Positions 11,690 through 17,100 of a stretch of DNA of 64,000 bases are shown here, piece after piece. This DNA is from Schmidtea nova (Eukaryota). A program made the position numbers and the translations under genes. Numbering within the stretch: position 1 is the stretch's first letter; every line of letters starts with the position of its first letter. The stretch covers positions 24,800,001 to 24,864,000 of the forward strand of contig CM097883.1 of NCBI GenBank assembly GCA_044892505.1, read 5' to 3'. The notes under the pieces were generated by a model. That model had not been told where the DNA came from. It searched no databases and was given only the letters and a program-made list of their open reading frames with translations.

Positions 11690-12906
11690 ATTTGATACAA
11701 TGTGAAAAGACCACGATGGAGAAGTCAAGGAGCCAGCATCAAGAATGTTCAGACAAGAACGATTTGATGAGCTTGCACTTAGAATTACCCAAAGCTCTAT
11801 TAGACCTGGTCCACGAGAAGAGAAATATATTGAGTTTTCAGTCAGAAATAAACGGGCTGAAGAGACAACATTTAACACTAAATTGTGAACACAACTTGAT
11901 TGATTTCAACGACCGCTTCTAGAAGAATCGCTCCAATATGATGCAGGGCATTTTACATTACACATCATCCCTCAGTCATACTAGAGCGATATTATTGTGG
12001 AATGAGATGAAAATCCAAGAGCTTTCCAGAGTGGTCGAACAAAAGGCTGAGCACAGAATTATTAAAAGAAAAGTTAAGTGAATTAAGAAGAAAAATTAAG
12101 CGAGTTAAAAAGGGAATGTTAAATTTATTCTTCACGCGTACCGGAAAAGGAGATCTTTCATTGGGAGACTTATACCCACGCTCAATCGGAAATCGTATCA
12201 AAGATTTGTGTTTACTGAAATTTCAAATCAAATTTTCCGTGTTGGGATATTTTTCTAAATCAATCATAAGAACACCAAGGAGTCAGATAAATAGGACCGA
12301 CTTTAATTAAATAAATCCCCAATATTTTGGAGAGTCCGGCATGATCAAAGTCAGTGAAAGGTTATTGAAAATAATTTAAGAAAGTTTATTAAATTTGTTG
12401 AAAGGAAATTAAAATTCAGTTGCTTTCCATATTACACTTGCAGTCTTCGGACGATTCTTGCATTTTAGTGACAATTCCTATATCAGGCATATCTAGGAAA
12501 ATCCTAACTAAACAGTTATTCCTAATTAAATTGCTTTTAATATCAAGGGAATTTAGTATGAAACATTGGTCAGCAAGGTCTTCATATGAAAAGAGCACGA
12601 TTGCAGCCAGTTCAGGGATCTTTGAATTTAACTCTGACTGGCATTGTAAATACACGATTCTGCGACCTACTATTAAGTACATCTTAAACTCACTCGATTG
12701 TGTTCCAAAAATCAAGATAGATGATCGTCTATATCACTATTCCAATTCCCGTCAGCAGTTAATTAAAAATGGGTGCCCAATTAGATTATTAAATTTATGT
12801 GGTATGTTACAATGTATCGCGCGCTATTCTTTTTTCGGGTTAAATAATAACTTTAAAGATTTTTCAATTTATTATGACAAGTTTTTGTATAAGTCACCCT
12901 TCATTA
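11690..12906 (+). pseudogene. Endogenous viral element: Phenuiviridae-like L protein (RdRp core), 5' part
   Basis: Motif B MMQGILHYTSSLSH (11938), motif C LQSSDDS (~12438), motif D/E EKST...FEFNSDW, then RPTIKY. Several stops and frameshifts. Confidence 0.9.
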
Positions 12907-15900
12907 CAATGGCGTAGTGCCACAGGAGCCCGGGCTCCCCCAATTTTCCTCATATGAGGGTTTAAAAATATACATTTATGAAATCATTAACTCGCTTATA
13001 AAAGAAGACTGTTTTCATCTTTTAAATAAAATAGTGCTCTCTTTGAGACCAAATGTACTATTATAAGCCATAAGTTTTAGCAAATAAAATGTTTTATGTA
13101 ACCCACAGACCACACTAAATTACTATGCCATTAAATCACATTTGATACATAACAAGCGAAACAAAGACATAGCTGTATTTGCATAGACTTTAAAAATCAG
13201 TTAATAAGCACATTGAGTAGAAACTTTTTTTCATATCTATGTTCTCAAATTTTTTGAAACATCAGTTTTAATGGTTTACTCAATTGGAAGTCATTTTTTA
13301 TATCATCTTTGTGTAGTTTTTTAAGTCATAGAAACAGGAATATTATGCTTTGAATAAGAAATTTATCATAAAATGAACGTTTAAGTGTAGAAATAATTTC
13401 TGCAATTTTTATTTACTTGTATTTTCATTCTTCCTTTAAATCATTTTATTGAAAACTAACAGTCACATCTAATGTGTTTAATGGTGCCTAATGTCATATT
13501 TGTTTGACTATACTATTTAATAATATATGAGAATCGTGCATTTACAAGTTTCCTTCACTTCAGACTTATTTTATCTGGATAACAGAGGTATTTTTGTGAT
13601 TTTAATTATTACTTTCATTTAACATTTCATTATATATTTCAAATATTTTTTTTTGTTTTTAAGGTATAATGAACAACTTTGTAATTAAAACACCAAGAAA
13701 TGCAGATCGTGCACATATGAATGATTCTGAGGATATATTCACTCAATCAAGTACCAATGCAAATGACACACAAGTAATAAATTCATCGGTATTTATTGAT
13801 GATAATCTGTGCTATTCCAAGTGACAGACATGCTGTATAGGCAGCATGATGTTTATTTTTTATTTTTTTAAATTTATTTAGACGAGGGCCTATTCGCAGC
13901 AAGAAATCAGTGTACCCACAAATCTCTATGAAAGGGAAGCTTCGTTCCTTCCAAGAACAATGGTACAACAATCGACCGTGGCTGAAATACAATGAATGCA
14001 ACGACGCTGCTTATTGCTTCGCATGTCGCGTGTTCGGGAATGAGAAATACGATCCTTCATTCCAAACAGTGGGTTTTCGGAGTTAAGAAAGAGCGTTGGC
14101 GAAAGGACGAGGATTTGAAAAACATTCTCAAAGTGCTGAGCACCTAAAGAACATGGAAAGGTGGACAAATGCCCTCTCCTGTACACCTGTCAACACCCAA
14201 ATAGACAAGGAGAGAGAAAGACTGTTACATAAAGAAGCCACGGAGCGCCAGGAACGGTTTGAAATTTTACCTGTTCTTTTTGGACATCACCAGTACTCTT
14301 GGACGCTAACGTCTACCTTTTCGAGGACATGAAGGAGAAGTAACATCTTCAAACAGGGGTGTCTTTCTGGAAATTACAGCTCTTCTGTCAAGGTGGAATC
14401 CAAAGCTAGCAAGTCATCTCCAAAAAGCAAACAATAATCCCAAAGCATACCCCAGTTACACGTCACCCCAGTCTCAAAATGAAATGATTCACTCTGTAGC
14501 TCAAGTCATACGAAAATCTGTTGCTGAAGAAGTGAAAGAGGCAAAGTTCTTTGCGATTTGCATGGATACGACGCCTGACTGCAGTAAGCAAGAACAATTA
14601 TCTATTATCCTTCGATACATTACTAAGAAATGGAACGTTGTGGAAACACTATTGGATTTGGTCCATGTGGGTAAATGTGATGCGAGTAGTATTTTTACAT
14701 AGCTAGAAACTGTTCTAAAGAAGAATGACTTGAAGTTCGAAGATATACGTGGACAAGGTTATGATGGCTGCCCATCTGTGGCAGGGATGTATCGTGGCGT
14801 GCAGCCAGAGTGAAGCAAATGTCCTCGAAAGCTTATTTTGTCCATTGCTTCGCCCATCGTCTTAATTTAGTTGTTGTGAAGATGTGCACTACTATCCCAG
14901 TTGGTCGTAACTTCTTCGGTATAGTGGAGCGCCTCTATCATTGATGGAGGGTTCAGCTAAGAGACACGGTCTTTTTAAAGAAGTGGAAGAGAAAATGGCA
15001 TCCGAGAGGGAGTCTGGAGAGGGAACACTGCGTCCTTTAAGTGCTACTCGATGGTCAACGCGAGTAGATAACTGTGTTGTCTTAGAAAAAACTTTGCCCG
15101 CAGTCAAGACGACATTGGAGCGCATGACTGAAGAGAGTAATTTTGATCGAGCTACAGTGAGTGATGCCTATGCACTCTTGAAAACCATAGACTTCCAGTT
15201 TTGCTTTTGCCTAACAGTATTTAGTGATATCCTGCGTTTATGCAATGTTGTCTCCAAGGCCTTGCAAAAAACATCAACAAATATCTCTGATAATGGAATT
15301 GCAGGAGCTAAGAAGTAACTCTCACTTCGATGAATACTGGATGAAAGCAGAGAAACTGGCTGACACAATTGACCAAGAGTTTTCTGAACCAATACGAAGG
15401 AAAGTGTCTCGTCGCCTTGATGAAAATTGGAGAATTGAAGTGGTTATGTCCGGAAAGGATAAAATGAAATATAACTTCTTCTTCTCAACGTTAGACGTTA
15501 TATTCAACGATCTCCGGAACAGGTTCAGTACTGAGATACTACCTATGCTAAAATCCATTGATTGTCTTATAAAACCGGACGTGACGAAACTCTTATCACT
15601 CCGCACTCTGTGCAATTTTTATAACGGAGACGTTAACGAAAATGACCTATTATCAGAATACCGATTATTTTGTCGCACTTCATTGAGGTCTTCTTCTGGA
15701 AATGAACATTCATGTCTTCATTTAGTTTACTTGCAAATGCTAGAAGATGGCAGTCATGCGATTTATCCAAATTTATCCCTCCTGTATCGCCTATTGCTCA
15801 CATTATCTGTCACCTCGGCAGCCCGTGAACGCTCTTTTTCAGCTTTGAAATTTATTAAAAGCAGACTAAGAACGGTAATGACACAGGAAAGGTTACGAGA

Positions 15901-16099
15901 CCTGATGATAATCGCTGTGGAGAGTGAACGCTCTGGAAAGTTGTCATTGTCTGAAGCATTGACACATTTTTGGAATATGCCTACTACTGAACGTCGTAAA
16001 AAGGTTTTTTAATAGTTTATGTACTGATTCCTGAATCTTACTTTTGTTACAATTTTCGGTTGGGACTCCCCTAAATTCTTTGACCGCACTACGCCGTTG
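12907..16099 (+). mobile_element. hAT DNA transposon (ZMYM1/TTF-zinc-finger type), decayed transposase at ~13880-16012
   Basis: TIRs CAATGGCGTAGTGC / GCACTACGCCGTTG; 8-bp TSD CTTCATTA on both sides. Peptides WLKYNECNDAAYCFAC, FAICMDTTPDCSKQEQLS, SATRWSTR, VTSAARERSFSALK. Confidence 0.95.
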
Positions 16100-16107
16100 C
16101 TTCATTA

Positions 16108-17100
16108 AGAAAATACTTTTTAGAACCACCGTTTTTAATCGGCCTTGGATCTTTTAGATTGGCTTTATATAATGGGTATATGACGAATTCTCTTGTCAGG
16201 TCAGTGCTGGACGTTAAGCATTCAGTTGACTTGGGCTTGATGAGTTCTGATGATCATCTGTTTTAAAGATTATCGTTTTTTGGCCAGAAAGATAAACATG
16301 ATAAATTTATTAAGAGACTTCGGGTGGACATTAAGTGAGCGACAGATCTTTCTTGAGATTTACAGAATCAGTTTTTAGGAGTCCAGTTGGGAATCTTGAA
16401 ATGTTAATGCATTTATACTTTAGAGCGTCTCAAACTGAAATGCTGGAAGCTTTGGATTATTCTCCTATTTCTGTTCTCCAGGCTTCATCTTGCTTTATCA
16501 CTCGAGAAAAAGTTCTTTCAGTAGTTTCTGAAATTTCCAACACTAGATTTTTTGACAAACTAACTTTACTTGATCTTATTGATAAGTTTCCTACGTCTTT
16601 CGGTCATCTTGTCCAAATTTTGAAAAGATTTTATTTCCAGAATGCATCTTTTTCAACAGCTTGCTAGATCTCAACACGTCTTACCTCAACTTTATTTTGT
16701 GTGCATCAGACAGGATTAGAAATAGATTTGTGACTGGAAAGATTTTGAGAGAAGTGGCAGTGTCAAATTTTCCTCTTATATCTCTTTGTAAAGAACATTG
16801 GTTTTTAACTCCTGTTCAGGGTAGTCAAGACTTGAAAAAAGTAGCATTCGATAGATATAAATCTTTATTTCCATGGTTGTCGACAATTTTGAAGACACCA
16901 TTTCCAATTGGCCTTTCAAGTCTCCTTTCAGCTTGAATTCTTTTCTTTCATCAATAACTGCCAAAATTAGAACGATCGAGATAACAGGTCCAATTAGGAG
17001 TTGTTCAATCATTTAGTCTTTAGTGTCAGAAGCTGTAAAAACTTGTTACAGTTTAACCTATATGACTAAGTCAATCCAAACATACCAATTCTTCTCGAAG
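16108..17100 (+). pseudogene. Endogenous bunyavirus-like L protein, continuation 3' of the hAT insertion
   Basis: YFLEPPFLIGLGSFRLALYN resembles phenuivirus GFFLxDNPxAxGLGGFxxNL. KEHWF...FDRYKSLFPWL and RTIEITGPI resemble the downstream thumb/lid region. The sequence joins seamlessly across the TSD. Confidence 0.8.

Follow-up and report, generated by a model that had tools for sequence, protein, structure and literature searches.

A viral polymerase fragment split by host DNA

The window, by which we mean the whole stretch of 64,000 nucleotides that was analyzed, very probably holds at positions 11777-17047 a decayed L (polymerase) gene fragment from a bunya-like relative of Tricladiphe virus. 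The viral sequence lies on the plus strand in three pieces, whose residues are given in Tricladiphe numbering. Piece 1 (11777-12006) corresponds to L residues ~1046-1124, includes motif B and one in-frame stop, and matched P0001 in tblastn (E 8e-21). Piece 2 (12415-12898) covers residues ~1133-1293, with motifs C, D and E in an open frame, and is 48% identical to Tricladiphe L (E 4.6e-32). Piece 3 (16108-17047) covers residues ~1297-1613 in a frame interrupted by three in-frame stops and shifted about three times, and matched P0001 in four tblastn blocks (E 3e-17 to 1e-4), as well as another genomic L copy, L055, at 72% nucleotide identity across 957 bases. Over its 549 codons the reconstructed L frame is broken by 4 in-frame stops, besides about 3 frameshifts, and the piece probably yields no protein now.

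Between pieces 2 and 3 lies a full-length but decayed hAT transposon (12907-16099, plus strand; 3,193 bp), which has 14-bp terminal inverted repeats (TIRs) agreeing at 13 of 14 bases and a transposase with 3 stops in 698 codons. It encodes DUF4371 (PF14291, E 2e-14) and Dimer_Tnp_hAT (PF05699, E 2e-10), and an identical 8-mer flanks it on the plus strand at 12899-12906, where it is viral sequence, and at 16100-16107. Its TIRs, target duplication and transposase with dimerization domain make it a member of the hAT superfamily, with the short TIRs and 8-bp duplication of known hAT transposons, among which this decayed copy from one burst is nothing unusual. Both TIRs were found at 9 of 11 sibling loci, where the target duplication was a perfect 8 bp in five, had one mismatch in three and was absent in one; a further sibling feature is the 718-codon open frame of L040. 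Since the duplicated bases are viral, and since five other genomic L copies cross the insertion site uninterrupted, with 10 bases there and no hAT, the L fragment predates the transposon. The sequence-only reading had thus placed the hAT and its target duplication exactly and had ordered the two events correctly; however, it took the hAT for the single interruption of L, and there is another.

This other interruption (12007-12414) is a fragment, 408 bp long, from the interior of a high-copy host repeat, and it has no target duplication. Of 1,906 candidates 40 were scored, and the fragment matched 39 of them at other places; none of those 40 was a near-identical donor. At the same position, six other genomic L copies have 24-31 bases, and the fragment therefore took the place of about 24-31 viral bases between motifs B and C. 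The spacing of these motifs, about 166 codons in the window versus 40-44 residues in 6/6 full-length L proteins, is wide because of the host-repeat fragment, and we rejected the idea that the 408 bp are a viral loop. A whole MITE was likewise rejected, as the family copies continue past the stretch on either side and its ends have no terminal repeats.

Host repeats also bound the viral sequence on the outside. The left flank (11535-11776) is a non-viral remnant of a low-copy host repeat, 81-86% identical to 3 other places, and the open frame related to this repeat had no Pfam match. The right flank (17048-17713, minus strand) is what remains of a gene for a protein-primed DNA polymerase B of Polinton type, with 71% nucleotide identity to a multi-copy family whose ORF is DNA_pol_B_2 (E 7e-31). 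We considered whether the virus piece sat within one Polinton, with both flanks from one element, and rejected this, as no fetched copy has both flanks. Many gap-rich alignments whose mismatch exceeded about 0.3 were attributed to chance and disregarded. With 12007-12414 and both outer ends assigned to host repeats, the ~2.2 kb of L proposed earlier shrinks to ~1.66 kb of viral sequence (230 + 492 + 940 bases), equivalent to Tricladiphe L residues ~1046-1613. Surrounded by host DNA, the sequence decayed once integrated, and as the virus it resembles has no DNA stage, it would count as a non-retroviral endogenous viral element.

Relationship to Tricladiphe virus

The first reading of the locus as an endogenous bunya-like L fragment is supported by Pfam and PDB matches to bunyaviral L and by the best protein match. 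Positions 12402-12914 matched Bunya_RdRp (PF04196) above cut-off (34.1 bits, E 1.4e-8), and the PDB matches of the window L were bunyaviral L proteins. The profile and protein comparison that had been suggested as a check gave bunyaviral RdRps as its best matches, and the best of 88 protein matches, from 1.84 billion proteins searched, was Tricladiphe L with 127 bits, while no other match over 300 amino acids exceeded 68 bits. Tricladiphe L was the top match for five of six window pieces; for piece 1 the unnamed P0004, at 81 bits, came slightly ahead of Tricladiphe, at 78. The motifs follow on the plus strand in the order previously recognized: motif B, MMQGILHYTSS (11938-11970), SSDDS (12444-12458), EKST (12588-12599) and EFNS (12624-12635), GLGxF in the form GLGSF (16141-16155), and PWL (16871-16879). 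Motif B is present as described, but its reading as a phlebovirus signature is not upheld, since the identical 11 letters are common to three other bunya-like viruses (Wuhan Insect virus 1, a cogu-like virus and Sanya bunya-like virus 18). With the best match at 48% to Tricladiphe and motif B common to unrelated bunya-like viruses, the sequence would not belong in the genus Phlebovirus. It does have a bunya-type L with motifs B-E in order, a trait of Phenuiviridae.

Tricladiphe virus is unclassified in NCBI and is described as Bunyavirales unassigned, with the proposed names 'Phenuiliviridae' and 'Triclopsivirus', L protein DAZ87940.1 and host Procotyla fluviatilis (PMC9241645 supplement). Two segments are listed for it, neither labelled glycoprotein, and the viruses of that study were reported as not found in available flatworm genomes (PMC9241645). 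Its L is collinear with the window over ~1046-1613, with 47-58% identity in the polymerase core and 29-44% downstream, and its host, like that of the genomic copies, is a triclad; however, it is a free RNA virus from a triclad of another family, whereas the window element is integrated and fragmentary. At under 60% identity, the window element can be regarded as a lineage distinct from Tricladiphe. In a quick, unrooted tree (162 columns, no outgroup family), 13/13 genomic rows formed one clade (SH-aLRT 98), which grouped with Tricladiphe and two unnamed fragments (support 99), apart from the Hunter Island, Dar es Salaam and cogu-like clade. A word-indexed homologue search with piece 2 (0/364 candidates) and scans of metagenomes and viral contigs (0/133 and 0/11 pattern matches confirmed), which reach close relatives only, revealed no live virus nearer than about 48%.

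The host PIWI is 88% identical to that of Schmidtea mediterranea, 74% to Dugesia japonica and 56% to Dendrocoelum, and these identities identify the host as a dugesiid planarian; an exon from the window gave no host placement (0/53). With the nearest viral relative also from a triclad, the attribution to a virus of this host lineage stands.

Other virus pieces and a likely route of integration

The genome contains at least 19 nucleocapsid (N) pieces, and PF05733, the phlebo/tenui-type nucleocapsid, had 16 matches genome-wide, none of them in the window; this second trait of Phenuiviridae is present elsewhere in the genome. One tested N copy matched 8 PDB nucleoproteins, and N and L pieces adjoin at 5 loci. 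The phenuivirus terminal octamer, ACACAAAG according to the available text of PMC8652140, was found as an exact match 41-72 nt upstream of N in 7/15 stretches and with one mismatch in 2 more, compared to a background of 44/7,012 windows. It was absent near 4/4 L-start loci, the window locus being internal, and the complementary 3′ octamer occurred downstream of N in 1/15 stretches, which is within chance. A glycoprotein segment is present in most Phenuiviridae genera. The glycoprotein profile PF07245 had 0 matches in the genome, but the control genomes were equally silent. Toti-like RdRp families also had 0 matches, again with silent controls.

The L copies differ from one another like coding sequences under selection, unlike neutral duplicates, and this strongly indicates that diverged strains of one virus lineage contributed the L core in at least 8 separate integrations. 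The window L has pS 0.72-0.89 and pN 0.09-0.25 against 11 of 12 other genomic copies, whereas the hAT, as a control, has pS about 0.04 and dN/dS 0.56-0.89 against 8 siblings. The copy L062 is unsaturated (pS 0.33-0.47 over 58-75 codons), as either a close strain or an old duplicate might be; L053 and L059, at pS 0.19 from only 40 codons, were counted as one lineage. Duplication of a single old integration, with selection acting on the diverging copies as a domesticated gene or mobile-element cargo, would fit the single clade of all genomic L rows and the observed cases of local duplication (tandem arrays at C2:93.6 Mb and C1:610.3 Mb, and the pairs L055/L056 and L057/L058). We consider this highly improbable, since the copies are fragments with differing ends and flanks, mostly with stops, and share no flanking carrier element, and since real duplicates are recognizable by their low pS (0.02 for L055/L056, 0.04 for L048/L051 and 0.09 for L057/L058) while the remaining copies are saturated. 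The probability of an assembly chimera, in which RNA-virus or cDNA contamination was joined into the contig, is close to nil, since the decayed viral sequence encloses a host DNA transposon together with the duplication of its target site, and related decayed pieces lie on all three large contigs. In addition, 4 runs of one study contain 99-100% of the sampled words of 16108-17040, although these may be the assembly's own source; no RNA run was among the listed sequencing-run matches to this interval, which is uninformative either way.

For separate integrations of a negative-strand RNA virus into host DNA, reverse transcription is needed. Viral RNA would have been copied into DNA by the reverse transcriptase of a host retrotransposon in a heritable cell and inserted through DNA repair, not by an integrase. 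The 408-bp fragment may have been captured in a repair-type event, at the expense of the viral bases it replaced. The hAT, inserted after the virus had integrated, duplicated 8 viral bases. The ends of the L fragment show neither a remnant of a retroelement nor a poly(A) tract, and no target duplication either; the nearest reverse-transcriptase-element match with the queries used was 46 kb away.

Flatworm viruses, clustering and a possible piRNA role

Non-retroviral endogenous bunya-like elements are well known in arthropods, and in the literature searched we found no report of them in flatworms. The locus by itself is a viral fossil of an ordinary sort, from a new group of hosts; the news is the genome-wide pattern, a long and repeated record of one triclad-specific bunya-like lineage that was previously known from one virus in one species. 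This record supports planarians as true hosts, retains segment ends and the diversity of strains, and supplies dated markers of insertion. The accessible part of PMC13036067 describes Phenuiviridae-related L and N RNAs, with no glycoprotein detected, in germ cells of Schistosoma japonicum, recently reported germ-cell residence and an effect on egg production for flatworm viruses of this type, and a Dugesia RdRp RNA whose kind is not given there. By this description, the S. japonicum RNAs resemble the planarian pieces in their flatworm host and in having polymerase and nucleocapsid without glycoprotein, but they are not genome-encoded; their presence in germ cells would favour integration.

The loci are unevenly distributed. 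One 20-Mb stretch including the window holds 9 of the 29 collapsed L and N loci, where random placement gives a mean of 3.1 and 0/20,000 simulations reach 9. Mononegavirus polymerase loci lie near bunya-like loci, with 4 of 12 collapsed loci within 1 Mb (0.5 expected; 23/20,000) and 11 of 12 within 6 Mb (2.1 expected; 0/20,000), although the thresholds of 0.6 Mb and 6 Mb were picked after the distances were seen, and the searches give lower bounds from incomplete lists. Such clustering, together with several PIWI genes in the host genome, raises the possibility, which we regard as rather doubtful, that the locus is kept or used as an antiviral piRNA source, adding a function to the decayed L fragment without replacing that explanation. 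Virus fossils accumulate in the region, as they do in mosquito piRNA clusters, and tick and mosquito elements of this kind are stated to prefer piRNA clusters in the available text of PMC6580184. However, repeat-rich, low-recombination chromatin with no more than a tolerance for insertions would likewise be expected to show clustering at the megabase scale, and the post hoc thresholds and incomplete locus lists weigh against a piRNA role. The Phenuiviridae-like elements of ticks and mosquitoes are likewise L fragments in repeat-rich DNA, many per genome and clustered, as far as the same text describes them, whereas here the host is a flatworm and one virus lineage lies behind dozens of L and N pieces. 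By analogy, we tentatively envisage a heritable archive of RNA viruses in planarians, in which certain regions might repeatedly gain pieces of glycoprotein-less, vertically transmitted bunya-like viruses and of mononegaviruses and feed PIWI as antiviral memory. Planarians offer a direct test bed for fossil-derived piRNA immunity outside arthropods, and such an archive, if real, would place mosquito-like antiviral memory in another phylum, in a stem-cell model open to RNAi.

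Identity of the viral fragment and its nearest relative

The element at 11777-17047 on the + strand is a bunya-like viral fossil, a known kind of sequence, in a host phylum for which we found no earlier report of one. All of the polymerase (L) motifs named in the sequence-only reading were present, in the claimed order and on the + strand. The open stretch at 12402-12914 scored above the cut-off for Pfam Bunya_RdRp, and its six PDB matches below E 0.001 (of nine listed) were all viral L-type polymerases. That reading was right about the kind of sequence, but its ~2.2 kb was too long and the genus suggested by its phlebovirus signature wrong: the viral part totals ~1.66 kb, corresponding to residues ~1046-1613 of the nearest L, it is interrupted twice (by a 408-bp repeat fragment and a hAT), and its closest match is Tricladiphe virus. 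A separate repeat lies to the left of 11777, and the remnant of a Polinton-type DNA polymerase to the right of 17047.

An exhaustive protein search returned 88 hits, headed by a 2,077-aa Tricladiphe virus protein (48% identity, 127 bits); an unnamed 147-aa fragment showed 49% identity. Tricladiphe virus topped the matches for five of the six pieces, while for piece 1 (11777-12006) the unnamed protein P0004 scored slightly above it. In a quick tree of 100 rows and 162 columns, which excluded the protein hit P0070, genomic hits shorter than 75 aa and matched stretches shorter than 110 aa, the 13 genomic rows formed one clade (98), which joined Tricladiphe and two unnamed fragments (99), separate from a clade of Hunter Island, Dar es Salaam and a cogu-like virus. 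Tricladiphe virus comes from the triclad Procotyla fluviatilis and is placed as unassigned Bunyavirales, with a proposed family 'Phenuiliviridae', in the supplement of PMC9241645; in the NCBI taxonomy it is unclassified. The host is a dugesiid planarian, because an intronless host PIWI is 88% identical to Schmidtea mediterranea PIWI2, 74% to that of Dugesia japonica and 56% to that of Dendrocoelum. The lineages of virus and host agree, in line with the proposal of a virus of this host lineage.

Bunya-like viruses are not known to have a DNA stage, and for this reason a retroelement of the host would have reverse transcribed the viral RNA, in a heritable cell. At this locus there was no retroelement, poly(A) tract or duplication at the element's ends. 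Phenuiviridae-like endogenous elements are well described in arthropods (PMC6580184), and endogenous densoviruses have been described in flatworms (PMC13055364); PMC9241645 gives its RNA viruses as absent from available flatworm genomes. Titles and the beginnings of abstracts held no report of bunya-like elements in flatworm genomes, although subscription papers and the supplements of genome papers or bioRxiv preprints may hold one.

Interruptions and relative age

The viral sequence integrated and decayed, a hAT later inserted into it, and part of it was replaced by a repeat fragment. The proposed hAT borders, 12907-16099, proved exact: the TIRs agree at 13 of 14 bases, an identical 8-mer lies on either side and hAT domains lie within. 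Among 40 places scored for this family, 39 others carry a copy 91-96% identical to the window's; both TIRs were found in 9 of the 11 siblings fetched, and eight of these nine have their own 8-bp duplication, perfect or with one mismatch. Five other copies of the viral element are uninterrupted at the hAT site, and therefore the hAT is later than the viral sequence, as had been claimed. Divergence is 2.8-3.8% between the window hAT and its siblings, and 3.1-4.2% among the siblings themselves; by these sequences, the copies stem from one burst, at about 1.8% per copy. Stops number 3 in 698 codons in the hAT and 4 in 549 in the viral pieces. With 5.6% of single changes yielding a stop, decay of the viral pieces is about 4% (a hand estimate from stops, with a Poisson range of roughly 1-11%). 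This lies inside the pN of about 0.1 that separates the window piece from its nearest lineages. The hAT is thus younger than the viral element, though probably by little, these ages being relative only.

The other interruption, 12007-12414, matches a high-copy host repeat. Six other viral copies in the genome have 24-31 bases at this site, and the spacing of motifs B and C is 40-44 residues in six full-length L proteins, compared with about 166 codons in the window. Because copies of the repeat family run beyond both ends of the fragment and its two junctions are 74% alike across 31 bases, we suggest that it was captured during repair.

Polymerase and nucleocapsid copies across the genome

The element is part of an extensive fossil record left by a single lineage of flatworm viruses. 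The genome contains at least 17 PF04196 matches, and a stricter first look with Tricladiphe L gave at least 28. Differences between the window piece and 11 of 12 other copies fall mostly at third codon positions (pS 0.72-0.89, pN 0.09-0.25), with dN/dS of 0.03-0.05 in the three comparisons with finite dS; the twelfth copy, L062, had a pS of 0.33. The hAT, a control that decayed in place, gave a pS of about 0.04 and dN/dS of 0.56-0.89 against eight siblings. An all-against-all comparison set recent L duplicates apart (pS 0.02-0.09). Since the window and seven copy groups (the L048 group, L053 with L059, L055/56, L057/58, L060, L061 and L084) are mutually saturated, that is, at a pS of 0.70 or more where at least 40 codons overlap, their sequences point to at least eight lineages across the polymerase core. 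Many separate integrations are strongly indicated, and repeated integration from diverged strains that evolved as viruses is the simplest reading.

Some copies also lie in repeated arrangements. At 93.64-93.67 Mb of the host contig G000:C2 (L048-L051), a ~1.7-kb L fragment occurs in tandem copies 94-99% alike. The copies are divided by a ~19-kb stretch in which a non-LTR retrotransposon lies, and gypsy elements flank both sides. At 610.29-610.32 Mb of contig G000:C1 (L085, L086), near the contig end, a 4.44-kb unit with the endonuclease domain and the rest of the N-terminal third of L is present seven times with identical scores, and a nucleocapsid (N) piece lies 3.5 kb from this array. Repeats in direct orientation, 0.5 and 1 kb long and 97-98% alike, lie on both sides of the L057 piece (1-523/5661-6187 and 3143-4151/6180-7189) and may be LTRs of a capturing element.

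N matches (PF05733) numbered 16, with three further N beside L pieces, and the one copy tested matches PDB nucleoproteins. An exact copy of the octamer ACACAAAG, a uukuvirus terminus similar to those of phlebo- and tenuiviruses (PMC8652140), precedes N by 41-72 bases in 7 of the 15 stretches, and a copy with one mismatch does so in two more, against a background of 44 in 7,012 windows. At five loci an N and an L piece share a strand, at two of them no more than 50 bases apart; this proximity links the two segments to a single lineage and is suggestive of template switching. A genome search for the glycoprotein gave no match, its control being silent as well; for schistosome relatives, L and N alone are reported, and these from germ cells (PMC13036067). 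At two loci (L105:1967-2582 and L109:3669-4189), hardly any sequence separates a truncated N piece from the early L piece that follows it; the junctions are similar, and the two N sequences only 68% identical. Several N pieces among the loci L100-L114 have a frame that stays open from ATG to stop for about 200-270 codons, which may reflect recent integration or host use, and their 5' ends are of two sequence types.

Clustering of the fossils and other elements

A 20-Mb stretch of G000:C2 that includes the window holds 9 of the 29 collapsed L and N loci, compared with a mean of 3.1 in simulations, where nine was reached in 0 of 20,000. In a separate search, 26 mononegavirus polymerase matches collapsed to 12 loci. 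Four of these are no more than 1 Mb from a bunya-like locus, where 0.5 would be expected; at up to 6 Mb the count is 11, against an expected 2.1, at a threshold chosen post hoc. By analogy with the piRNA-cluster-like archives of viral elements in ticks and mosquitoes (PMC6580184), this clustering would fit such an archive, and accumulation in tolerant heterochromatin would account for it equally well. About 45 kb separate a mononegavirus polymerase fossil at G000:C2:406.69 Mb from a group of clustered PIWI genes that lack introns.

Polinton family matches include many inverted pairs; at L075/L076 and L077/L078, Polinton-like elements are duplicated in inverted orientation, the long copies being 99.5-99.9% alike across ~5 kb. 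The window itself carries two further Polinton-like remnants: a piece at 9202-9785 that shares 72% identity with an ORF from the L077 element and, at 25503-26270, a second polymerase B fragment. An open frame at 55583-56095, with a weak AP1AR match below the cut-off (E 6e-5) and no match in a homologue search, is perhaps a host exon. Remnants of a MULE (23349-24005) and of DDE_Tnp_1_7 (40138-40695), a second hAT whose frame runs for 439 codons (48918-50237) and a gypsy integrase piece (63289-63765) were also found in the window.
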